This document shows, in pieces, positions 1 to 63,647 of a stretch of DNA of 64,000 nt. Source of the stretch: Nanobdellota archaeon (GTDB lineage: Archaea; Nanobdellota; Nanobdellia; Pacearchaeales; GW2011-AR1); contig JBBSXO010000002.1 in the NCBI GenBank assembly GCA_038045705.1, forward strand, positions 1 to 64,000, read 5' to 3'. The position numbers were made by a program, and so were the translations under genes. Every line of letters starts with the position of its first letter. Within the stretch, counting starts at the first letter, position 1. The notes below the pieces were generated by a model. It ran no database searches. It saw only the letters and a list, made by a program, of their open reading frames with translations, and was not told the DNA's origin.

Positions 1-63
1 GTTATTTGATATTTGTGTAAGGAGGCGAGTTTAGTGCGTATTTCCACTAATCACCAAATATTA

Positions 64-173
64 TTGTAATATCAACAATTAGAGGTGTTCGTTTCACATA
101 AAGTTCGAAATCCAAAAATGATTTTTCGCTATAAAATAATCTTAAAACCACACCTCTAAATTGAATATTACAA
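64..173. repeat. Imperfect inverted repeat, ~24-25 bp arms
   Basis: TTGTAATATCAACAATTAGAGGTGT (64-88) vs reverse complement of 150-173, TTGTAATATTCAATTTAGAGGTGT. Confidence 0.7.
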
Positions 174-311
174 ATTAACCAAGTCAAACTTCTATTTAAA
201 CCTATGCTTTTCCACCTTGTAGTCTAAGAATATCCTCAAGTCCATCAAAATAATCTCTAACTTCTTCAGGTATTTGAGGCATATCCTGGAATTGTGTGAC
301 ATACAATATAT

Positions 312-1082
312 CTAATTAGGAGTTTTCCTATTAAACAACCATATTGCTGTTGGTATTGAAACAATTAGTATTCCAATGCACCAGATAAATGCCAAAACTC
401 CAGCATCACCTATTGGAGTTCCAACCATCCAAGCACGCATAGCCTCAATTACTTTTGTAAAAGGTTGGTTTTCTGCAAACCATCTAACAACTCCAGGCAT
501 TCCTTCAGTAGGAACAAAAGCACTGCTTGCAAAAGTAAGAGGCATGATTATTACAAATGTCATCCATTGAATAGCCTCAAAGCTCTTAGCCAATAATCCA
601 AGAATAGCAGATAACCATGAAATAGCAAATGTGAATAATAACAATAATCCTATTATCATCATCCATTCGTTAAATCCCGCTGTAGGTCTAAATCCAACGA
701 GAAATGCAACTAAAACCATTATTACACCAGATATAACATTTCTAACAAGATCAGCTATAGTATGTGCAACTAATAATCCTGGAGAAAACATTGGTAGAGA
801 TCTGAATCTGTCAATAACTCCTCTTTTCATATCAAGCACTAAATTAATTGCAGTCGTACTTGCTCCAAATGCAAGAGTTTGTACTAAAATTCCAGCTACT
901 AAGAAATTAACATAAGTTGTTCCACCAGTGTCAATTGCTCCACCAAAAACATATCTAAACAATAACAAGAACATAATTGGCATTATTGCAACACCAAGTA
1001 GCTGATCCATATTTTTTACAATGTGTTTCAGACTACGATTAGTTAAAATCCAGCAGTCAAGTAAAATATCTTTTAGTTTCAT
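312..1082 (-). CDS. ABC-2 type transporter permease (DrrB-like)
   Basis: About six hydrophobic segments, GVIDRFRSLP and FASSAFVP motifs; overlaps the stop of the ATPase gene. Confidence 0.9.
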   Translation of the reverse strand: MKLKDILLDCWILTNRSLKHIVKNMDQLLGVAIMPIMFLLLFRYVFGGAIDTGGTTYVNFLVAGILVQTLAFGASTTAINLVLDMKRGVIDRFRSLPMFSPGLLVAHTIADLVRNVISGVIMVLVAFLVGFRPTAGFNEWMMIIGLLLLFTFAISWLSAILGLLAKSFEAIQWMTFVIIMPLTFASSAFVPTEGMPGVVRWFAENQPFTKVIEAMRAWMVGTPIGDAGVLAFIWCIGILIVSIPTAIWLFNRKTPN

Positions 1083-2050
1083 TTTTTAATCTCCTGATCA
1101 TGTTCATCTTTAGAAGCAGTATGTCCTGTTAAAGATAGAAATACATCGTCTAGAGTTGGTTTGTGTAAAGACAGACTATCCACTTTAATGTCAGACTTTT
1201 CAAGCTGTTGTAAAACTTCTTTGAGTTTTTCAGTTCCACCTTTAGATGCAACACTAATAATTCTTTTCTTCTTGTCTGTTTGCATTTGTTCACCCTCTAT
1301 CACACTAACAGCTTTTTCAAAATCACTTTCTTTAGAGATTATTATCTCAAGCCTTTCAGAACCGACTTTTGATTTTAATTCATCAGCAGTTCCTTCTGCT
1401 ATAACACGACCATGATCAATAACAACAATTCTGTCTGCAAGCTGATCAGCTTCATCCATATATTGAGTAGTCAATAATACTGTTGTTCCATCTGCAGCTA
1501 ATTTCTTAATTATATCCCATAGTGCTAGTCTACTTCTAGGATCAAGCCCTGTTGTTGGTTCATCTAAAAAAATTATTGGAGGAGAAGCAATTAAACTCAT
1601 AGCAAGATCAAGTCTTCTTCTCATACCTCCAGAATAAGTTTTAACAGCACGCTTTCCAGCATCTACCAAGTCAAATTGTTTTAGTAATTCTTTTGCTCTT
1701 TTTCGTGCTTCTTTTTTACTCAATCTATAAAGGCGACCCATCATCTCTAAATTTTCTTCACCAGTCAAGTATTCATCAACAGCAGCAAATTGTCCAGTAA
1801 GACCTATACTTTTTCTTACCTCATTAGGATATTTTACAATATTATAATTATTTACTATAACCTCTCCGCTATCAGGTTTAAGCAAAGTACTAAGAATTCT
1901 AACAGTCGTTGTTTTACCTGCTCCGTTAGGTCCAAGTAAAGCAAGAATACTACCTCTTTCAACATTTAAATGTAAACCCTTCAAAACGTGAAGATTCTTA
2001 AATGACTTTTTCAAATCTTTAACAACAATCACATAGTCATCTTTTTTCAT
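1079..2050 (-). CDS. ABC transporter ATP-binding protein (DrrA-like)
   Basis: Walker A GPNGAGKTT, signature YSGGMRRR, Walker B IIFLDEPTTGLDP. Confidence 0.95.
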   Translation of the reverse strand: MKKDDYVIVVKDLKKSFKNLHVLKGLHLNVERGSILALLGPNGAGKTTTVRILSTLLKPDSGEVIVNNYNIVKYPNEVRKSIGLTGQFAAVDEYLTGEENLEMMGRLYRLSKKEARKRAKELLKQFDLVDAGKRAVKTYSGGMRRRLDLAMSLIASPPIIFLDEPTTGLDPRSRLALWDIIKKLAADGTTVLLTTQYMDEADQLADRIVVIDHGRVIAEGTADELKSKVGSERLEIIISKESDFEKAVSVIEGEQMQTDKKKRIISVASKGGTEKLKEVLQQLEKSDIKVDSLSLHKPTLDDVFLSLTGHTASKDEHDQEIKK

Positions 2051-2127
2051 AATCTAAGAAAATTAACTAGATATTTAAATATAGTTTTCAGTTTATTTTT
2101 TAGCTCTACGTATGCTAATGGTTTAGC

Positions 2128-2637
2128 CTACGATGCATTTAATTTATCTCTTAAAGTTCTTCTAGCACGAAATAAATTTTTTCTAAATTTTGGATCATTT
2201 TTCCTTCCTGTATTTTGGATGTAAGAAGAAAATGCTTTTAACTGACAATCTGGTAAACACTCTACTTCTCGAGCGATAATTTCCTCAAGTTCTTTAGAAA
2301 GTAATTCATCAAAGGGAGTTATAGATCTTAAAGCAATTTTTCTTCCTACAAATTCTTCTTCAGTCGGTTTATACCCAGAATCTGTCCAACGATCTCTACA
2401 AAGATTACCAAAAGAAGTATAAATAAAAGAAGGCATAGTCTCTCGCCGAATAACCTTTCCACTAAATAGATATCTATGCAATTTAATATATAAATCTTGT
2501 ACAAAATCTTCAGATCTAGGAGAATCAAAACCAAACTTTCTTTTCCCATACCTTAGTAGTTTTGGCATTAACCCATTAACTGCAACAGCCAATTCTTCAT
2601 AACTTACTTGATCGGAATCTTTTTCAACAAAGTCCAT
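2128..2637 (-). CDS. ECF sigma-70-like protein (region 2 plus shortened region 4)
   Basis: SEDFVQDLYIKL...SFIYTSFGNLCRDRW resembles sigma region 2; LPDCQLKAF...LFRARRTLRDKL resembles region 4. Confidence 0.7.
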   Translation of the reverse strand: MDFVEKDSDQVSYEELAVAVNGLMPKLLRYGKRKFGFDSPRSEDFVQDLYIKLHRYLFSGKVIRRETMPSFIYTSFGNLCRDRWTDSGYKPTEEEFVGRKIALRSITPFDELLSKELEEIIAREVECLPDCQLKAFSSYIQNTGRKNDPKFRKNLFRARRTLRDKLNAS

Positions 2638-2706
2638 GAGTATAATATAAAATTTATTGAGATATATAGATATTTATATTTTTAAAAGTTCTGAGAAATA
2701 ATGTCA

Positions 2707-3258
2707 TTAAATTTCAATTTCCAAGACACCAACTCTAGAAAGTCTTTCTTTAAGTTTATCTCTAGCTCTATTAATTTTTGCCCTTTTAGCACCTGATTTA
2801 TATGCCTCTTTTAATTCACCTAATTGACTTAAAATTACTCTTTGATAATTTTTAGACAATTTAGATATCTCTTGCATTACAATTTTAGAATTTTCATCTT
2901 CAACTAATTGACTAATAGGTTCCACAGCATTTGTGTCAATCAAGTCATCATCAAGACATTCAAATTTGAGTCTTTTTCTAGAATTTCTTCTACGTAATTC
3001 ATCGATACAATTTCTATCAAATGCTCTTGCAATATAACCTTTTAGACCACTTCCAAATTCAACAAAATTTTCTGTCATTAAATTACGATAAACTTCAAGA
3101 GCAGTATCTGCCTTTAAATCTTCAGCAATGTCCCAAGGTAGCCCGTAAGATTTAGCTCTTCTAATAAGTTTTTCTTCAAGTTCATCAAATATTGATGGAA
3201 GTCTTTCTATCAGTCCAGCATTTATTTCAACATAGCCTATTTTAGTCATAGTGTCCAT
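2707..3258 (-). CDS. ECF sigma-70-like protein (region 2 plus shortened region 4)
   Basis: AEDLKADTALEVY...LKGYIARAFDRNCIDELRRR; LSKNYQRVI...AKINRARDKLKERL. Confidence 0.7.
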   Translation of the reverse strand: MDTMTKIGYVEINAGLIERLPSIFDELEEKLIRRAKSYGLPWDIAEDLKADTALEVYRNLMTENFVEFGSGLKGYIARAFDRNCIDELRRRNSRKRLKFECLDDDLIDTNAVEPISQLVEDENSKIVMQEISKLSKNYQRVILSQLGELKEAYKSGAKRAKINRARDKLKERLSRVGVLEIEI

Positions 3259-3480
3259 CTAAAATTAGACTATTTAAACGTGTGTATTTATTACTACTTT
3301 CTAGAGGTAATATTTATTTATTATCTGTTTTCTTGCTATTTTAAATCCCTTAACAATTCCAACTGTCAAAAGAGAATAAACAATAAATCTAAGAGATTGT
3401 TGTGGAATTAAAGAAACAGCATTTTCTAAAAAAATACTAATTTGATTTTTCATTTTATCCAGAACATTTAGGTTGTAAAA

Positions 3481-4758
3481 TTACTTCTTAGCTGTAATCT
3501 CTAAGCAAACGCCAGCTGCAACGGTGCTACCAGCATCTCTTACCGCAAATCGAGCCATATTTGGATTTGTAGCCTGTGTTTCAAGTACAAGGTTTCCAAT
3601 AGGTCTTATTCTAACTTTAGCAATATCTCCATTCTTCAAGAAGTCAGGGTTTGAAGCCTTTGTCCCATCAGGAGATTGTTTTTCAATCAATTCAATAAAC
3701 TGACATGGCACTTGAGCAGTATGTACATGGAAAACTGGTGTATATCCTTTAGCAATAACTGTTGGGTGTGAAATTATAGCAACTTGAGCAACAAACTCTT
3801 GTACAATTGATGCAGGTTGAGATGCGTCACAAACAACATCGCCACGAGCAATATCTTTCTTTCCAATACCTCTGATATTGATTCCAACATTATCTCCAGC
3901 TTCAGCTTGATTCATTTGTTCATGATGCATTTCAATAGTCTTAACTTCACCATTAATTCCTGTTCCTGACCTTCCAGGTAAAATAACAACCTTTTGACCG
4001 AGTTTCATAATTCCTGTTTCAATCTTTCCAACTGGAACAGTTCCAATACCAGTAATTTCATAAACATCTTGTAAAGGCATTCTTAATGGTAATGATGTTG
4101 GTTTGTTAGGTTGTTCAAATAAGTCTAACTGTTCTCTAACAGTTGGTCCCTTATACCATGGCATGTGTTCTGACTTCTTAACAACATTATCCCCAAGATA
4201 ACCAGCAGCAGGAATAAAAGCCATTGTTTCAGTCTTATAACCAGCTTGTTTTAATATAACTGAAACATCAGCAACAACTTTTTTATAAGCATCTTCTTTC
4301 CATTGAACAGTATCCATTTTATTAACAAGAACAGCAATCTGCTTAACACCCATTGTTCTTAAAAGCCAAGCGTGTTCTTTTGTTTGAGGTTGAACTCCTT
4401 CAGCTGCTGCAACTGTTAAGAAAGCAGCATCAGATTGTGAAGCACCAGTAATCATGTTCTTGATAAAGTCTTTGTGACCAGGAGCATCAATTATTGTAAC
4501 TTCATACTTATTTGTAATCAACTTTTGATAAGAAAGATCAATTGTAACTCCTCTTTCTCTTTCTTCCTTAAATTTATCCATAACATAAGCAAACTCAAAA
4601 CCAGCTTTACCATGTTCCTTTGCAATTGTCTTAAGCTTGTCTATTTCTTGCGCAGGGATAGCTCCAGCATCGAACATCAATCTACCAATAGTAGTACTCT
4701 TACCGTGGTCTACATGACCCACGAAAGCAACGTTTATTGTTGGTTTTGTTTTTGCCAT
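3481..4758 (-). CDS. tuf: Translation elongation factor EF-1 alpha
   Basis: GHVDHGKST, ERERGVTID, DAPGHKDF, NKMD; archaeal type. Confidence 0.98.
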   Translation of the reverse strand: MAKTKPTINVAFVGHVDHGKSTTIGRLMFDAGAIPAQEIDKLKTIAKEHGKAGFEFAYVMDKFKEERERGVTIDLSYQKLITNKYEVTIIDAPGHKDFIKNMITGASQSDAAFLTVAAAEGVQPQTKEHAWLLRTMGVKQIAVLVNKMDTVQWKEDAYKKVVADVSVILKQAGYKTETMAFIPAAGYLGDNVVKKSEHMPWYKGPTVREQLDLFEQPNKPTSLPLRMPLQDVYEITGIGTVPVGKIETGIMKLGQKVVILPGRSGTGINGEVKTIEMHHEQMNQAEAGDNVGINIRGIGKKDIARGDVVCDASQPASIVQEFVAQVAIISHPTVIAKGYTPVFHVHTAQVPCQFIELIEKQSPDGTKASNPDFLKNGDIAKVRIRPIGNLVLETQATNPNMARFAVRDAGSTVAAGVCLEITAKK

Positions 4759-4922
4759 TTTAATTTGTAATCAGTTTTATTTTTGTGGGTATTTAAACTT
4801 TGTGATTTTTGAAGATTATATTCGTTTAATAAATTAAAATTCAGACAATAAAAATAAAAATAATCAAGAAATATTGATAAGTCTAAGAAATATATTTAAA
4901 CTCTAAATCTCAAATAAAAAAT

Positions 4923-5513: not shown

Positions 5514-5864
5514 TTAAGTATAACCTGGATGCAATGTAGCTCTTTGAGGAACAATTGTTTCAATTCTTCTTTTAACCCAGTCATATCCTGCGTTTCTCCA
5601 ATCATTACACTTTACCATTGCTCTATAACCTATAGCTCTTCCAAACTTATCCATAGAGTGCACTGAAATCGCTAAAGCATTACCTACTGCACCAAGAACT
5701 TTAACGTATGGTCTCTTGTAGAAAGGTATACTGCTTATTATAGGGGCTCCATCTTCAATATCTTCAACAAAATCCTCTTCAACAACCCTATCTAATGCGC
5801 TCTGTATTTCTTCTCTTAAATTTGGTTTAAGAGTCATATATCCAGGAGTCTCTTTTCTATTCAT
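5514..5864 (-). CDS. Hypothetical protein
   Basis: 116-aa ORF with ATG start and upstream TATA-like element; no recognised motif. Confidence 0.6.
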   Translation of the reverse strand: MNRKETPGYMTLKPNLREEIQSALDRVVEEDFVEDIEDGAPIISSIPFYKRPYVKVLGAVGNALAISVHSMDKFGRAIGYRAMVKCNDWRNAGYDWVKRRIETIVPQRATLHPGYT

Positions 5865-5898: not shown

Positions 5899-6195
5899 CT
5901 ATCTTTGATTTTTAAGATAATTTATTGCTCTGCCTGATTTTTCTTCAGGCATTTTCAACAAAACCCTTCTACCATAACCACCACAAAAGACTGAAACTTC
6001 TAGAGCCCTTAAGAATGGATTATATTCATGAACTCTCATACCATTACCTTGAGCTCTATGAGTGAATTCTCTCCCTAACATAATTCCAGCTAAATCAGGT
6101 GTATCTTTTAGTCTTAGGATGAAAGGCAATATTCTAGGATCAAAAGATGCTGGACCACTAGAATATAGCTTTGCAATATCATTAGAAAAATCCAT
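5899..6195 (-). CDS. Hypothetical protein
   Basis: 98-aa ORF directly downstream of EF-2. Confidence 0.6.
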   Translation of the reverse strand: MDFSNDIAKLYSSGPASFDPRILPFILRLKDTPDLAGIMLGREFTHRAQGNGMRVHEYNPFLRALEVSVFCGGYGRRVLLKMPEEKSGRAINYLKNQR

Positions 6196-8533: not shown

Positions 8534-8872
8534 TTATCTCTTTTTCCACGCAGATGCTGAAAAAATTAAGTCTTTGTCAACACTCAAACCTTTTAACATA
8601 TTTCCACTACAAAATGCTTCAACAACTTTTCCTTCAAGTTGTGATGGCTGGCAAGTATTTGTTCTAGCAAAAAGTTCTTCTATATCTTTAGGATCTCCTA
8701 AAGACCATGACGCTTCACCATAACCTTTATACTTCAATTTAAACTGTAGTCTGCACCAATCATGTGAAAAATCAAAAGTTGGTTCTTCAATTCTTGCATA
8801 TTCCATTGTTAATTTTCTGACTTGTTCATCTGTCAATCCATTGCTATACCATTTATCAACTTGTATTGTCAT
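8534..8872 (-). CDS. Hypothetical protein
   Basis: 112-aa ORF with TTTATAAA upstream, between rps7 and fusA. Confidence 0.6.
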   Translation of the reverse strand: MTIQVDKWYSNGLTDEQVRKLTMEYARIEEPTFDFSHDWCRLQFKLKYKGYGEASWSLGDPKDIEELFARTNTCQPSQLEGKVVEAFCSGNMLKGLSVDKDLIFSASAWKKR

Positions 8873-9024
8873 AATTTATGGATAATAGACCCATTTATAA
8901 ACCTTTCTATATTTACTACTTTCAAGTTATACTACTTTCAGAAACTTACATATCATCCCAATAGGTATCTTTAAAGTTAAAATTAATCTTCGATATTTGA
9001 GTAGAAATCATTATTTTATGACAA

Positions 9025-10118: not shown

Positions 10119-10469
10119 TTATAGGTCATCTTTAATTGAAGGTCTTAATAATGTTTCATATGCTAAAGAGATTGCTTGAAATATTATAATTGGTTCATAA
10201 GCTCTAGAATCTATTGATTGATATAACTCTCTAAAAATATAGCCTCCAACAGCTAATCCAGATATTAAAGCAACCAGATTAGATGCTTTTTCAGATCTGC
10301 TTGCTCCCATCATATCTTCAGTATTCTCACGATAATCTCTAATGTCCTCAATTAAACTCCTTATAGCAGTTGGGACAGCAAATAATATTCCTAGAAAATA
10401 AATTGTCCCTCTACCAGAATTTTCAAATATTCTTTCAGATTCTGTCTTAGTAGGGAACCTATAATCCAC
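10119..10469 (-). CDS. Hypothetical membrane protein
   Basis: 116-aa ORF (GTG start) with 2-3 hydrophobic stretches. Confidence 0.55.
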   Translation of the reverse strand: MDYRFPTKTESERIFENSGRGTIYFLGILFAVPTAIRSLIEDIRDYRENTEDMMGASRSEKASNLVALISGLAVGGYIFRELYQSIDSRAYEPIIIFQAISLAYETLLRPSIKDDL

Positions 10470-10523: not shown

Positions 10524-10943
10524 TTAGACAACTCTAATTGTTTTTCCGAAATAAGATTCCATTATAGCACTTAATTCCATGAGCCTCATTTTATTTCTTC
10601 CAATTAGTGTTGCAGCTCTTTCTCTAGAGCCAGCAGTTATAATATAAGTTCCTTCTTGGATATCAAAACCATCAAAACCAGCAGGTGAAACAACAGATTC
10701 TACAAATCTAGCGACGGAATTTGGATCATCACCAGCATCTTTTATTATCCTTATTCTTTTTCCAAGTTGTTCTGAAAGCATTTTTGCATTTTCATTTTGG
10801 TTTCCACTTGCTTTAGAAAAGAATTTTGGAGGGACAGCAAAGTAAATCATATTGTTGTAAACAAAACACTTTGTTGCACGAACACGAGCAATTCTCTCGA
10901 AGAGATTTATATATCTCATCGTCTGCATATCTATTATTGCCAT
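10524..10943 (-). CDS. nusA: Archaeal NusA-like transcription factor (KH domains)
   Basis: MRYINLFE, LIGRNKMRL; canonical position between rpoA and rps12. Confidence 0.88.
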   Translation of the reverse strand: MAIIDMQTMRYINLFERIARVRATKCFVYNNMIYFAVPPKFFSKASGNQNENAKMLSEQLGKRIRIIKDAGDDPNSVARFVESVVSPAGFDGFDIQEGTYIITAGSRERAATLIGRNKMRLMELSAIMESYFGKTIRVV

Positions 10944-10944
10944 A

Positions 10945-11020
10945 TTCAAAACTATTTTGTGTTGTATGCGCAGGCATACCAGTTTAGTTTTGAATTGCTA
11001 ATAATTTCAGTTATTTCCAT
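10945..11020 (-). promoter_or_regulatory. Conserved leader copy 2: 22-aa uORF plus 50-nt inverted repeat
   Basis: uORF MEITEIISNSKLNWYACAYNTK (11020-10952); same nested inverted repeat, ending 1 nt before the nusA ATG. Confidence 0.75.
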
Positions 11021-11069: not shown

Positions 11070-14000
11070 TCATTCTTTTTTAGATTTATTCTTTATCTTC
11101 TTATCAACCAGAGCACCAGTTATTTTTACAAGTAATCCAGGTAGTCCTGTACCTACAGGTATAGGTTGGTTAAGAATAATATTTTCGATAACAGAAGCTA
11201 AATCATCTTTCTTACCTTGTATCGTAGCATTTACAAATTGTTTATCAGGTGTCTCGAAAGCTGCTCTAGCAAATATACTTGATTTGTTTGAGATAATTCC
11301 CATTCTTGTAACCCCTTTAACGAGGCCAGTATTTGTCATCGCATCAGATATTAAATCCAAGTGTCTCTCATCAATATCTAAACCTTGAGAGTCAAGAACC
11401 TTTTTAATTTCAAGTAATATAGCTTCTCTAGCAGCTTCAATTCCAAGAACTTGAGCAACTTCATGAACATTGTTTGTAAAGACTTTATTTTTATCAACTC
11501 CCTTAATTTCAATTACTTCTTTAAGATTACTTCCACTAGTTAGTACAACAAAGTCTTTTCCCCTATGAGCAACAACAACTTGTGATATATCTTTAACCCC
11601 TGAAATAATTGTTTTCTTTAATTTCTCTTTCATCTTATACATCTCTTTGAATCCTAATTCAGTTGTCTTCAAAATAATTGAATTATCTTTTTGTTTAGCG
11701 TCAATTCCTTTTTCATTTAATCTTTCTGCAATCTTTTGGGCACCAACATGAACTCTCTTAAGAGCATCAGAATCTAGTTCTATCTCTATCTTTTTTCCAG
11801 AAAAGTCCATTTTAACTTCTGAAGCAATTTCTTCAAGTTTGACTTCCTTAAGTTTTTCAGCAATGCTTCTTGCATCTTTTTCATTATTGAAATCTTTATC
11901 AAGATAAATCTCCATTGCAGGAGTAGAAGGTTCTTTTCTAGCATCAAATATTTCAATTAATCTAGGAAGACCTAAAGTAACCTGCACTTCAGCAACTCCA
12001 GCAGAGTGGAATACGTTCAAAACCATCTGCGTTGAAGATTCTCCAAATGATTGTGATGTTGTAACTCCAACAGATTCTCCAGCTTGTATTTTTTTACCAG
12101 TATGTAATTCAGAAACATCTCTACCATCTCCACCATATAAAAATTGAACAATATTCTGTGAAGCATCTCTAACAGTTCCATCATATTCCACTTTCAAATC
12201 TTGAAGAGCACTTACAAGTCTTCTATACAAGTAACCAGATTTAGGGGTTCTCAAAGCTGTATCCATTAATCCATCTCTTCCAGTAATTGCTCCAAAGAAA
12301 AATTCAGTCGGTTTCAATCCTTCAAAGAATGAAGATTTAATGAATCCCTTAGCCTCTGAACCAACATCTCCTTTCTTGAAGTGAGAAGTTGTTCTCCCTG
12401 CATACCCAAAACTAATACGTTTATTCCACAAGATCTGCTGTCCAACACAACATCCAATTTGTGTAACATTAGTTGCACTACCCTTAGCTCCAGAAAGAAT
12501 CATTTTACTTATGCTACTTTCACGAGAAATATTTTCCTTTACAATCTTACTTGCAGAAGATAGAACTTCGTTCAAAGCTTGAGAAATCTTAATTTCTTTA
12601 GTTTCATCAATAGTTTTACCGGGAAGCAATTCCAAGTCTCCAGATCTTGCATCTTCAGCAATCTTATTAGTTTTCTTTACAGTTTCTTCGATAATATTAT
12701 CTGTAAGTTCCTTAACTTTACCAGATACATCTAAATCACGTAAACCTATAGAGAAACCTCTTCTAGTCAAATATGAAACTCCAAGTGCAGATGCTCTTTG
12801 AATTGTATCAAATGTAGCATCTCGCCCATGCACTTTATCAATTTGTTTTACCATAGAACCATCTTCAAGTCCTAACGTTGATTCACTTGTGATATCTTTA
12901 GGTACAGTAAGCTCATTGCCCTTAGGAAGAATACCACCAAAGACATCTATCCCACTAATATTTTTTTGTTTAACATTAAATATCACTCCAGCACTAAACA
13001 GCAACTGTTCAGCGTCAGATTTTTCAAAATTATCCTTTCCTAAAACATAATTTCCAGTAAGAGAATCAAGAGTAAGTCCAATCAAGTTCGAATTGTTTTT
13101 CGTAGACATTATATTATGTTTAATATTAAGCAAAGTTTCAGCCTCAGATCTAGCTTCTTCAGTTTGTGGAGAGTGTATGTTAACTTCATCTCCATCAAAG
13201 TCAGCGTTATATGGAAATACAACTGCAGGATGCAATCTAAATGTCTTATAAGGCAAAACTCTAACATAATGAGCCATTAAGCTCTGCTTATGAAGTGAAG
13301 GATGTCTGTTAAACAGTACAATATCCCCATCAACCAAATGTCTTTCAACTTTATATCCAGGGACAAGTTCAGTGCAAATTTCTTCTTTTAATTCCTCTGT
13401 GATTCTCTTTTTCTTCCCGTCAGGTCTTATAACATAATTGGCTCCCGGGTGTTGATCTCCCTTTCTCACAAGTGCCCTCATATATTCTAAGTTTGTACTT
13501 GTAACCCCCTCAGCAACAGTGATTATTTTAGCAACTTCAAAAGGAACTCCAACTTCATCAAGAGCCAAATAAGGATCAGGTGAAACTACAGTTCTTGCAG
13601 AGAAGTTAACTCTTTTACCAGCTAAGTTCTTCCTAATTCTTCCTTCTTTACCTTTAATCCTTTCAGTTATTGTCTTCAAAGGCTGTCCAGACCTATGCCT
13701 TGCTGGAGGAATCTTAGAAATATTATTATCAAAGAATGTTGTAACATGGTATTGTAATAAGTCCCAAAGGTCTTCAATAATTACTTCAGGAGCTCCAGCA
13801 TTCAAATTTTCCCACAATCTCTGATTTGCTCTTATAATATCTGAAATCTTGTGAGTCAAGTCATCTTCACTTCTTTCTCCTGTGTCAAGAGTAATAGAAG
13901 GTCTCATTGTAACACTAGGTACAAGCAACTGTGAAAGAATTGCCCACTCAGGTCTAAATGTTTTAGGATTAACTCCAATCTTTTTTATTTCTTCATCCTT

Positions 14001-14513
14001 AATCTTAACAAGCATCTCTCTTATTTCGTTAGGGAATAATCTTTTTTTTCCAGTATAGAAAGAAGTTGGTTTCTCTAATTTTATTTTTTCAGCATCAACG
14101 TTACAGAAAGGACACTTTTTCTTATCTCTAGCCTTCTTAGCTCTTTCGATAGGTGTGTATTTCTTCTGTTTATCTTCTTCCAAAGTTAATTTTCCGCAAG
14201 AGTGACAGAAACTTCTCAAGAATAACTCAATCAAAGGAATATATTTAATATGCACAATAGGTCTAGCCAATTCAACACTACCGGGATGTCCAAGACATTC
14301 CTTAAGACGACCACCACAAGTTCTACATCTTACCCCAGGGTCAACAGCTCCAAGACGTAGATCCATAAGACCCCCATCTACAGGGAATCCATCAATATCA
14401 TAAAGTTCAGGTGTTACAATTTTAGCAGTACTTAACTTCTTAATTTGTTCTGGATTGACTAAACTAAATCTAAGTGATTTTACTTGCTTCTTTATTATTT
14501 CAGGGTTTGCCAT
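11070..14513 (-). CDS. rpoA: RNA polymerase subunit A (A' and A'' fused)
   Basis: CRTC/CLGH Zn site, catalytic YNADFDGDE, then A''-type TQMVLNVFHSAG and TLGLPRLIE in one frame. Confidence 0.97.
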   Translation of the reverse strand: MANPEIIKKQVKSLRFSLVNPEQIKKLSTAKIVTPELYDIDGFPVDGGLMDLRLGAVDPGVRCRTCGGRLKECLGHPGSVELARPIVHIKYIPLIELFLRSFCHSCGKLTLEEDKQKKYTPIERAKKARDKKKCPFCNVDAEKIKLEKPTSFYTGKKRLFPNEIREMLVKIKDEEIKKIGVNPKTFRPEWAILSQLLVPSVTMRPSITLDTGERSEDDLTHKISDIIRANQRLWENLNAGAPEVIIEDLWDLLQYHVTTFFDNNISKIPPARHRSGQPLKTITERIKGKEGRIRKNLAGKRVNFSARTVVSPDPYLALDEVGVPFEVAKIITVAEGVTSTNLEYMRALVRKGDQHPGANYVIRPDGKKKRITEELKEEICTELVPGYKVERHLVDGDIVLFNRHPSLHKQSLMAHYVRVLPYKTFRLHPAVVFPYNADFDGDEVNIHSPQTEEARSEAETLLNIKHNIMSTKNNSNLIGLTLDSLTGNYVLGKDNFEKSDAEQLLFSAGVIFNVKQKNISGIDVFGGILPKGNELTVPKDITSESTLGLEDGSMVKQIDKVHGRDATFDTIQRASALGVSYLTRRGFSIGLRDLDVSGKVKELTDNIIEETVKKTNKIAEDARSGDLELLPGKTIDETKEIKISQALNEVLSSASKIVKENISRESSISKMILSGAKGSATNVTQIGCCVGQQILWNKRISFGYAGRTTSHFKKGDVGSEAKGFIKSSFFEGLKPTEFFFGAITGRDGLMDTALRTPKSGYLYRRLVSALQDLKVEYDGTVRDASQNIVQFLYGGDGRDVSELHTGKKIQAGESVGVTTSQSFGESSTQMVLNVFHSAGVAEVQVTLGLPRLIEIFDARKEPSTPAMEIYLDKDFNNEKDARSIAEKLKEVKLEEIASEVKMDFSGKKIEIELDSDALKRVHVGAQKIAERLNEKGIDAKQKDNSIILKTTELGFKEMYKMKEKLKKTIISGVKDISQVVVAHRGKDFVVLTSGSNLKEVIEIKGVDKNKVFTNNVHEVAQVLGIEAAREAILLEIKKVLDSQGLDIDERHLDLISDAMTNTGLVKGVTRMGIISNKSSIFARAAFETPDKQFVNATIQGKKDDLASVIENIILNQPIPVGTGLPGLLVKITGALVDKKIKNKSKKE

Positions 14514-41046: not shown

Positions 41047-41292
41047 TTATAACACAAATACCCAATATCTATCTTTACGCTCTTCAAGTGAATAAAAACT
41101 TAAAGTCTTGTTATTTGGCAAAACAAATGTTCTTTTTAAATAAGGATCTAAATCAATCCTTTCAAGACCTAAGACATCACAAAATGCCCTCTGTATTTCA
41201 GAGTATGATCTATAACCACTAGACCACCACCCTAACAACCTTCTTTTTAGTACAGGAATTTCTCTTCTAGTTATCAAAGGTTCATCTTCCAC
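41047..41292 (-). CDS. Hypothetical protein
   Basis: 81-aa ORF (GTG start). Confidence 0.45.
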   Translation of the reverse strand: MEDEPLITRREIPVLKRRLLGWWSSGYRSYSEIQRAFCDVLGLERIDLDPYLKRTFVLPNNKTLSFYSLEERKDRYWVFVL

Positions 41293-41356: not shown

Positions 41357-41893
41357 TCAATCATCTCTATCTTGAGATCTACAGTATTCTCCAACAGATT
41401 TTATTGCGTTCCTTATTCTTCTACAAACTTCCTCCATTTTCAATCCAAGTAATTCAGAAATTTCTTTATAATCTACGCCATTAAGCGCAAGAGAAAGAGC
41501 TTCACCGCGACGACGAGGAATCAGGGGTAATACTCTTCTTACTTTTTCAAATTCTTCCCGTTCAATAATTTTATCTAATGTATTAGGAGCCTCTACATAA
41601 CAAATCAAACTTGGATTTTTTAATGATTTTAATCTTTTCGCATTGCGGAAGTAATCCATACAAGAATTAGTAAAAATAACATATGCGAGTCCTCGTAAAG
41701 TTCTAGGTATTAATTTACCATCTCTGGCAAGAACAAGTAATTTATAAGCAGTATCTTGAAAAAAGTCTTGAGCTACATCTAAAGAAAGATTATATCTCAT
41801 ACGACCCAAATTAACTAGGAGTCGTTCCAAATAGACTAATGACTCAGCTAAATCAGTATCTTTTTCTTCAATAGTTTCATCAAAACGAACCAT
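41357..41893 (-). CDS. ECF sigma-70-like protein with intact region 4 HTH
   Basis: AQDFFQDTAYKL...AYVIFTNSCMDYFRN; GVDYKEISELLGLKMEEVCRRIRNA. Confidence 0.8.
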   Translation of the reverse strand: MVRFDETIEEKDTDLAESLVYLERLLVNLGRMRYNLSLDVAQDFFQDTAYKLLVLARDGKLIPRTLRGLAYVIFTNSCMDYFRNAKRLKSLKNPSLICYVEAPNTLDKIIEREEFEKVRRVLPLIPRRRGEALSLALNGVDYKEISELLGLKMEEVCRRIRNAIKSVGEYCRSQDRDD

Positions 41894-63543: not shown

Positions 63544-63647
63544 GCGCGGGTAGTATAGTGGTTAGTATACGACGTTGCCACTTTTTCCCTTTAGTAAGAA
63601 GAGAAAGCAAAGACGTTGTGGCCCGGGTTCAATTCCCGGCCCGCGCA
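63544..63647 (+). tRNA. tRNA-Gly(GCC) with 32-nt intron at 37/38 (63581-63612)
   Basis: GCGCGGG/CCCGCGC acceptor, CGACG/CGTTG stem, BHB core TTGC/GCAA. Confidence 0.93.

Follow-up and report, generated by a model that had tools for sequence, protein, structure and literature searches.

Archaeal transcription requires TBP, TFB and TFE and uses no sigma factor, and for this reason it is an unexplained anomaly that many DPANN genomes keep sigma-family genes under selection. Their occurrence was reported in 2021 by Castelle et al. (PMC8204110); the accessible parts of that article describe sigma-70-class genes in DPANN (fam00359), most prevalent in Woesearchaeota, state that mis-binning was ruled out and that no anti-sigma factors were found, and leave the controlling mechanism unclear. 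In the literature searched, this brief mention was the only treatment of DPANN sigma-70 genes found. The present work concerns two adjacent sigma-like genes, here called sigA and sigB, of a Nanobdellota archaeon (assembly GCA_038045705.1). They lie within positions 1-64,000 of contig JBBSXO010000002.1 (contig C2 of the genome, which is labelled G000); this whole stretch of 64,000 nucleotides is referred to as the window, and all positions given without a contig name are window positions. The host is a very small DPANN archaeon (phylum Nanobdellota) from groundwater (genome of 844 kb in 10 contigs, 91.5% complete, contamination estimate 0.45%). A preliminary description, made from the sequence alone, had interpreted the two genes as members of a diverged sigma-70-like family in an archaeon with a TBP/TFB-type RNA polymerase (RNAP), and had suggested that they were either repurposed regulators or effectors and decoys directed against a bacterial partner. 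The assumption about the host was correct: TBP and TFB are both encoded in the genome, and archaeal Rpo1 and Rpo2 are encoded within the window.

Sequence relationships and predicted structures of sigA and sigB

sigA and sigB are diverged descendants of extracytoplasmic function (ECF, group 4) sigma-70 factors. sigA matched TIGR02985 (E 6.1e-9) and TIGR02937 (E 9.7e-7, 28.6 bits), and sigB matched NF058625 (E 6.4e-8) and TIGR02937 (16.8 bits). The TIGR02937 cut-off is 42.9 bits, and by curated cut-offs neither protein is placed in the ECF group, the E-values being significant regardless. The NCBIfam matches bear out the initial recognition of two neighbouring sigma-like open reading frames (ORFs). 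With the Pfam profiles the outcome was divided: Sigma70_r2 was matched below its cut-off of 24 bits by sigA (E 0.0017, 18.5 bits) and sigB (E 0.077, 13.2 bits), and the region-4 tail that had been read from the translations found no Sigma70_r4 or Sigma70_r4_2 match at E <= 1 in either protein. Wider searches pointed to the same family. Searched against 1.84 billion representatives, a profile built from the pair and its orthologues retrieved 2245 proteins at E <= 1e-3, of which 23 reached <= 1e-10 and 5 reached <= 1e-30; 91 of the retrieved sequences made up the alignment used for folding, and Sigma70_r2 and Sigma70_r4_2 were each detected in 68 of them; a language-model search returned solely bacterial sigma-70-family clusters. 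The two proteins share 21-24% identity. Both have the two-domain architecture, with 169-180 aa folded into two helical domains around a low-confidence linker and with no region 1.1 or 3. The start of sigA is likely the second ATG (3249), because its relatives all begin with M-T-E, the stored form of the protein (P0001) has 180 aa, and the promoter alignment agrees with this start.

The AlphaFold2 models had mean predicted local distance difference test (pLDDT) values of 87.8 (sigA) and 88.7 (sigB), exceeding 90 over the sigma2 helices. For both models the top Foldseek matches were sigma-70-family chains, mostly of the ECF type, with E-values from 1.4e-3 and a probability of ~1.0 at the top ranks; the whole-chain E-values are weak because the domain orientations differ. 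In domain-wise superposition the sigma2 domain of sigA (residues 10-97) gave Z 9.2-9.3 and a root-mean-square deviation (rmsd) of 2.3-3.4 with 82-84 residues aligned (4lup_A, 7qh5_A), and that of sigB (residues 8-93) gave Z 9.8 and rmsd 2.3 with 82 residues aligned (7qh5_A). The sigma4 domain of sigA (residues 109-180) superposed on SigL sigma4 (3hug_A; Z 9.4, rmsd 2.3, 72 of 80 aligned), and that of sigB (residues 112-169) on region 4 of sigmaE (2h27_D; Z 7.4, rmsd 2.1, 58 of 69 aligned). As Z values in this range are common for helical models, weight is placed on the match lists, which consist almost entirely of sigma factors, and on the coverage of whole domains. The sigma2 fold (regions 2.1-2.4), whose absence had been named in advance as the finding that would overturn the interpretation, is present in both models.

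The second half of the proteins departs from this pattern at one place. In the alignment with full-length relatives, 8-9 residues are deleted from sigA and sigB exactly at the '..EIA..' segment, the first helix of the sigma4 helix-turn-helix (HTH); the preliminary description was right in noting the lack of this helix ('EIA..LG'). At the deletion site the sigA model has a 4-residue turn (150-153) and the sigB model a loop (141-148). A larger sigma4 deletion, of ~25 residues, is found in sigB of two other genomes of the genus, G013 and G009. Neither sigA nor sigB possesses a complete sigma4 HTH, the reader of the -35 element, though the domain superposes on sigma4. The basic last helix is retained, and the C-terminal halves have isoelectric points of 9.1-9.6. 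When the clamp of RpoA (residues 1-330; alignment of 24 rows) was co-folded with sigA (alignment of 91 rows) without controls, the score was 0.00, which gives no verdict and weighs neither for nor against binding.

Evolutionary rate and residence in the archaeal genome

The pair is carried by four genomes of the genus: the host genome, G012, G013 and G009. Between the host genome and G012, sigA is 77% and sigB 80% identical, with ratios of nonsynonymous to synonymous substitution rates (dN/dS) of 0.51 and 0.39, respectively; the corresponding values for EF-1alpha are 95% and 0.05. In the comparison with G013 identity falls to 31% (sigA) and 27% (sigB), and here the ratios for the sigma-like genes are unreliable because dS is saturated; the adjoining exporter genes drrA (79% identity, dN/dS 0.11) and drrB (90%, 0.06) remain conserved. 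Neither ORF is interrupted in any of the four genomes, although identity falls as low as 26-31%. sigA and sigB are fast-evolving and under selection.

Sigma factors being bacterial genes, a bacterial fragment misjoined to an archaeal contig during assembly or binning had to be considered. For positions 2128-3258 this explanation is refuted. The G+C content of sigA and sigB (0.30-0.32) and their G+C at third codon positions (GC3, 0.12-0.16) are like those of the adjoining genes, Logan contigs from 4 runs of 2 studies span the ABC-sigB-sigA-tuf junctions without differences and at even depth, and sigA follows tuf also in G012, G013 and G009; the contamination estimate of the genome is 0.45%. We therefore give practically no credence to a chimeric insert, the other finding that the preliminary description had listed as decisive against it. 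What speaks for such an origin lies elsewhere in the assembly, where two sigma-like fragments (C5:84436-84894 and C6:6044-6220) encode arginine/alanine-rich proteins unlike the others. The former lies within ~250 nt of a contig end, and contigs C5 and C6 have a slightly higher G+C content (0.35 vs 0.31-0.33); a foreign origin or a mis-join is possible for these two fragments.

Gene context of sigA and sigB

Together with a small ORF and a DrrAB-type exporter, sigA and sigB constitute an accessory module of few genes that is inserted behind tuf (Table 1). On the minus strand of positions 1-4758 the order of transcription is aEF-1alpha, the 50-aa ORF, sigA, sigB, the DrrA-type ATP-binding cassette (ABC) ATPase and the DrrB-like permease, and upstream of aEF-1alpha lies the archaeal cluster of rpoB, a fused 1147-aa rpoA, S12, S7 and EF-2. 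The statement that the genes follow tuf, at the place where rps10 is usual in archaea, was confirmed, the single Ribosomal_S10 match of the genome being on a different contig (C6:55030-55311).

The permease was found in 3 of 17 genomes of the genus, all of them carriers of sigA/sigB and always at the sigA/sigB locus, whereas none of the 13 non-carriers had it; this co-distribution is not an independent count because the carrier genomes are kin. In G013 and G009 the gene order is tuf, small ORF, sigA, drrA, drrB, sigB, an ITPase-like gene and a TPR-like gene; in the host genome sigB precedes drrAB. G012 has sigA and sigB and no exporter, and in G006 and G001 the ITPase-like gene stands directly after tuf. 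The small ORF is intact (42-50 aa) at the same place in all four sigA/sigB genomes. Its identity between the host genome and G013 or G009 is 50-55%, where that of sigA is only 31%. It had no Pfam or PHROG match; it has a single hydrophobic stretch and is a candidate membrane-anchored partner. A match to the zf-HC2 anti-sigma domain was not obtained in the 91.5% complete host genome, nor was a NepR-like protein found there.

The TATA-like element claimed upstream of the genes was located before sigA: in all four genomes the start codon of sigA is preceded, at a distance of 21-24 nt, by the TTTAAATA box, and the GAAAGTAGT block is also conserved, with one base different in G012. The box and its spacing fit a leaderless archaeal promoter for sigA. 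In G013 and G009 the GAAAGTAGT-plus-TATA pattern occurs once each, only at sigA; there was no occurrence in G012, G006 or G001. GAAAGTAGT was also considered as a possible operator of wider reach: the host genome has 10 exact sites, and only at sigA and at a second ORF (8534-8872) does GAAAGTAGT lie 10-18 nt before a TATA-like box. At this second place, between S7 and EF-2, the 9-mer is present twice in tandem upstream of the box, and the ORF that follows is unannotated. An ECF-type promoter for sigA was considered and rejected: a GAAAG -35-like block is conserved, but the four genomes differ at the '-10' (CGTT, TATT, CTTT and TGTT).

Table 1. Features of the window discussed in the text
Feature	Position	Strand	Length	Evidence and remarks
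ABC-2 (DrrB-like) permease	312-1082	-		Pfam ABC2_membrane, E 1.6e-30
DrrA-type ABC ATPase	1079-2050	-		TIGR01188 drrA, 375.9 bits (cut-off 312); Pfam ABC_tran, DrrA1-3_C; directly downstream of sigB
sigB (ORF1)	2128-2637	-	169 aa	ECF sigma-like; same sigma4 HTH deletion as sigA
sigA (ORF2)	2707-3249	-	180 aa	ECF sigma-like; intact sigma2, sigma4-like domain without first HTH helix; 183 aa (2707-3258) from upstream ATG 3258
sigA promoter region	3271-3301	-		TTTAAATA box 3271-3278, 21 nt before ATG 3249; GAAAGTAGT block 3293-3301
Small ORF	3301-3453	-	50 aa	Between EF-1alpha and sigA; one hydrophobic stretch
aEF-1alpha (tuf)	3481-4758	-		TIGR00483, 603 bits; NCBIfam EF-1 alpha, 603-616 bits; last gene of RNAP/S12/S7/EF-2 cluster
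Cluster ORF a	5514-5864	-		No credible Pfam match (E <= 0.01)
Cluster ORF b	5899-6195	-		No credible Pfam match (E <= 0.01)
Unannotated ORF	8534-8872	-	112 aa	Between S7 and EF-2
Tandem GAAAGTAGT	8915-8939	-		Upstream of TATA-like box and of the 112-aa ORF
Cluster ORF c	10119-10469	-		No credible Pfam match (E <= 0.01)
Cluster ORF d	10524-10949	-		No credible Pfam match (E <= 0.01); sub-threshold G6PD_N only, E 0.001
Largest RNAP subunit	11070-14513	-	1147 aa	One fused ORF, Rpb1 domains 1-5
81-aa ORF	41047-41292	-	81 aa	Directly downstream of third paralogue
Third paralogue	41357-41893	-	178 aa	Full ECF-type sigma-like protein; TIGR02937, 52.3 bits (cut-off 42.9); Sigma70_r4_2, E 4e-5; sigma4 HTH kept
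tRNA	63544-63647	+	104 nt	Rfam match (71-position model); not reported by ARAGORN

Family, distribution and phylogeny

The preliminary description had joined the pair with a third paralogue into an expanded, diverged family, and this view held. A six-frame search of the host genome gave 8 TIGR02937 matches at E <= 0.01, one of which, the third paralogue, scored above the cut-off. In G016 a homologue of the 81-aa ORF directly downstream of this gene (blastp E 8e-7) adjoins the sigma-like ortholog, and a similar small ORF accompanies the ortholog in G005, with a KRRLxG-like motif in common. These small neighbours (81-102 aa; the 81-aa ORF of the window, L016:1160-1450 on the minus and L037:1097-1405 on the plus strand) occupy the same locus flanked by threonyl-tRNA synthetase. 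The 81-aa ORF matched no Pfam or PHROG family and may be a candidate lineage-specific partner of the third paralogue, for instance an anti-sigma analogue.

Above-cut-off TIGR02937 matches were present in 17 of 41 related genomes and, in the control set, in all 10 bacteria and none of the 4 model archaea. Within the genus, 12 of 17 genomes had a TIGR02937 match at E <= 1e-5; strong matches to the sigA/sigB subfamily were confined to the four carriers, and in a sample of 400 further genomes from the phylum the sigA profile detected nothing at E <= 1e-6. A word-index homology search returned, for each protein, itself and one orthologue of 77-80% identity, and 5 proteins when an alignment served as the query; a search for related loci with a 3-row alignment yielded one locus among genome contigs and two among metagenome contigs, all ~78% orthologues. 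Among the representatives there are ~20 related 50%-identity clusters, with the same motifs throughout. sigA-type proteins have the M-T-E start, an RNCxD motif and a GVLE-like tail in common. NCBI labels the orthologues of the pair 'hypothetical protein', and the nearest named full-length relative is a 'sigma-70 family RNA polymerase sigma factor [Candidatus Woesearchaeota archaeon]'.

A quick tree was calculated from 78 rows of 140-230 aa, taken from representatives up to P0080 and leaving aside seven long or fused matches as well as P0011 and P0018, fragments that comprise sigma2 only. The 11 sigA rows form one clade, with a Shimodaira-Hasegawa-like approximate likelihood ratio (SH-aLRT) of 86, and all sigA and sigB rows fall together with 7 of the 8 known archaeal sigma-like proteins into one group of 28-31 rows (SH-aLRT 87 / 76), apart from 46 other representatives. 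The sigB proteins of the host genome and G012 could not be placed because of their long branch. The tree lends modest support to a diversification within a clade of archaeal sigma-like proteins.

Seven related genomes have longer ORFs of the sigma-70 family, with 286-361 aa (G029, G002, G007, G026, G040, G020 and G035; loci L013, L015, L018, L019 and L021-L023). Judged by eye from their translations, they look group-1/3-like, with regions 2, 3 and 4, and not like ECF factors. The contig that carries one of them (G026:C1) exceeds 360 kb; several are on contigs of a few kb, for which the binning is less certain. In another genus of the family, G042 has at L028:1408-2577 a full ECF-like gene (Sigma70_r2 E 1.2e-8, Sigma70_r4_2 E 7.4e-14). 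Directly behind it is a gene for a membrane protein of the SpoIIM family, and before it a multi-pass membrane ORF of 276 aa, an arrangement in which another membrane-side partner is possible.

Other features of the window

In most archaea the gene for the largest RNAP subunit is split into A' and A''. In the window it is one fused ORF, and corresponding open frames of 1095-1203 aa are present in 38 other genomes of the order. The RNAP/ribosomal-protein/EF cluster also contains the four ORFs of 98-141 aa listed as a to d in Table 1; c and d hold the places usually occupied in archaea by L30e and NusA. The tRNA match near the end of the window, longer than its model, is probably an intron-containing archaeal tRNA.

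Possible functions of sigA and sigB

Of the explanations considered, we tentatively put forward that sigA and sigB are domesticated accessory regulators which act inside the archaeon and are coupled to the exporter and small-ORF module; this is a possibility rather than an expectation. In such a role they would no longer be bacterial-style promoter-specificity subunits. They might regulate their own module and perhaps a few other promoters, with sigma2 and the basic C-terminal helix making contact with DNA, the transcription machinery or both. The small hydrophobic ORF would be the membrane-side partner, by analogy with the ECF sigma/anti-sigma circuits that induce exporters under envelope stress. 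In many bacterial ECF envelope-stress loci an exporter and a small hydrophobic ORF adjoin, as they do at sigA/sigB.

Several observations weigh against this proposal. Erosion of the HTH argues against ordinary DNA reading of the -35 type, and no sigma domain is known to work with an archaeal RNAP. Since G012 carries the pair without the exporter, coupling to the exporter is not obligatory, and the co-distribution comes from four closely related genomes. The dN/dS of 0.4-0.5, ~10x that of EF-1alpha, is compatible with relaxed constraint. The hydrophobic stretch of the small ORF comprises only ~15 residues, and this ORF lies upstream of sigA, the bacterial anti-sigma gene being usually downstream. 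A search for RNA runs covering positions 2050-4800 found none, which says nothing either way on expression. A more specific form of the idea is that a bacterial sigma2 module was co-opted by the archaeal transcription apparatus: it would dock on archaeal RNAP (e.g. at the clamp coiled-coil, the TFE/Spt4/5 site) or on melted promoter DNA, and would be restrained by the small hydrophobic protein, the whole operating as an ECF-like envelope-stress switch that induces the DrrAB exporter. This version we regard as improbable.

Loss of the DNA-reading helix of sigma4 with preservation of the overall sigma2/sigma4 shape would also be expected of sigma mimics in a partner switch, which, on the model of PhyR, bind neither promoter nor polymerase and control full-length paralogues by titrating an anti-sigma-like protein. 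The weaker hits of the structural comparison include PhyR sigma-like structures (3t0y, Z 7.5), and the host genome has full-length paralogues, one of them with a conserved small neighbour (see above). Against this stand the lack of a receiver domain (neither protein continues beyond 169-180 aa or has a Response_reg match at E <= 1), the failure to find a NepR-like or zf-HC2 anti-sigma protein in the host genome, and the presence of sigA/sigB in only 4 of the 17 genus genomes, compared with 12 of 17 for TIGR02937 matches at E <= 1e-5; a mimic is unlikely. The same loss can be read as decay. If sigA and sigB were once-functional sigma-like genes under relaxed selection, with no specific role and open by chance or weakly useful, then dN/dS values well above those of EF-1alpha and the ABC genes, a sigma4 loss progressing from 8-9 residues here to ~25 in sigB of G013 and G009, and the patchy presence within the genus and phylum would all be in order. 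Relics would not, however, be expected to stay intact as two ORFs in four genomes at 26-31% identity, to keep invariant family motifs (the M-T-E start and RNCxD), to retain a conserved promoter and upstream small ORF, or to be predicted with high confidence in both domains, and decay is in our judgement distinctly unlikely.

Very improbable, finally, is the effector or decoy function that the preliminary description had contemplated, in which the proteins would be sent to a bacterial partner and act on its RNA polymerase or anti-sigma factors. It is by way of an intact sigma2 that sigma factors dock on bacterial beta-prime, and fast evolution would suit an arms race. On the other hand, no hydrophobic N-terminus was seen in the translations, which were inspected by eye with no signal-peptide tool run, the module contains no secretion genes and has cytoplasmic-looking surroundings of regulatory and exporter type, and the relatives fall in an archaeal sigma-like clade. 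In addition, DPANN are described in the abstract of PMC8204110 as episymbionts of other archaea.

The locus offers a compact and tractable case: the proteins are only two and both are short, there are candidates for a small partner and for a target (the DrrAB exporter), and the promoter is defined. Because the helix that reads the -35 element has been lost naturally, the range of possible activities is smaller. If they touch archaeal RNAP or promoters, a domain of a bacterial initiation factor would be functioning on a polymerase of the archaeal/eukaryotic type; if they do not, they would be another instance of the sigma fold re-used as a protein-binding module.

Comparison with known systems

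The bacterial ECF factors (sigmaE, SigW, SigL, SigH) resemble sigA and sigB in their two-domain size, in the superposition of sigma2 and sigma4 and in sequence profile. In contrast to them, sigA and sigB lack the first sigma4 HTH helix and score under every curated cut-off, their host has archaeal RNAP, TBP and TFB and no detected zf-HC2 anti-sigma, and an archaeal TATA box stands at sigA in place of an autoregulated ECF promoter. The sigma-like domain of PhyR, the anti-anti-sigma factor of Alphaproteobacteria, is likewise derived from an ECF factor and has given up promoter reading for protein-protein contacts, and it is weakly matched in structure (see above); unlike PhyR, sigA and sigB have no fused receiver domain, a NepR-like partner was not found in the host genome, and the host is an archaeon. 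For the sigma-70-class genes of DPANN, the available text of PMC8204110 reports the same phenomenon, in bona fide DPANN genomes and with no anti-sigma factor found; compared with what is described there, sigA and sigB are a narrow, HTH-eroded subfamily found in 4 of 17 genus genomes. Because sigma-70-class DPANN genes were already reported in 2021, as that text shows, and NCBI already names the Woesearchaeota relative a sigma factor, the pair is not the undescribed system that it was initially taken for; it is an HTH-eroded variant of a known oddity.

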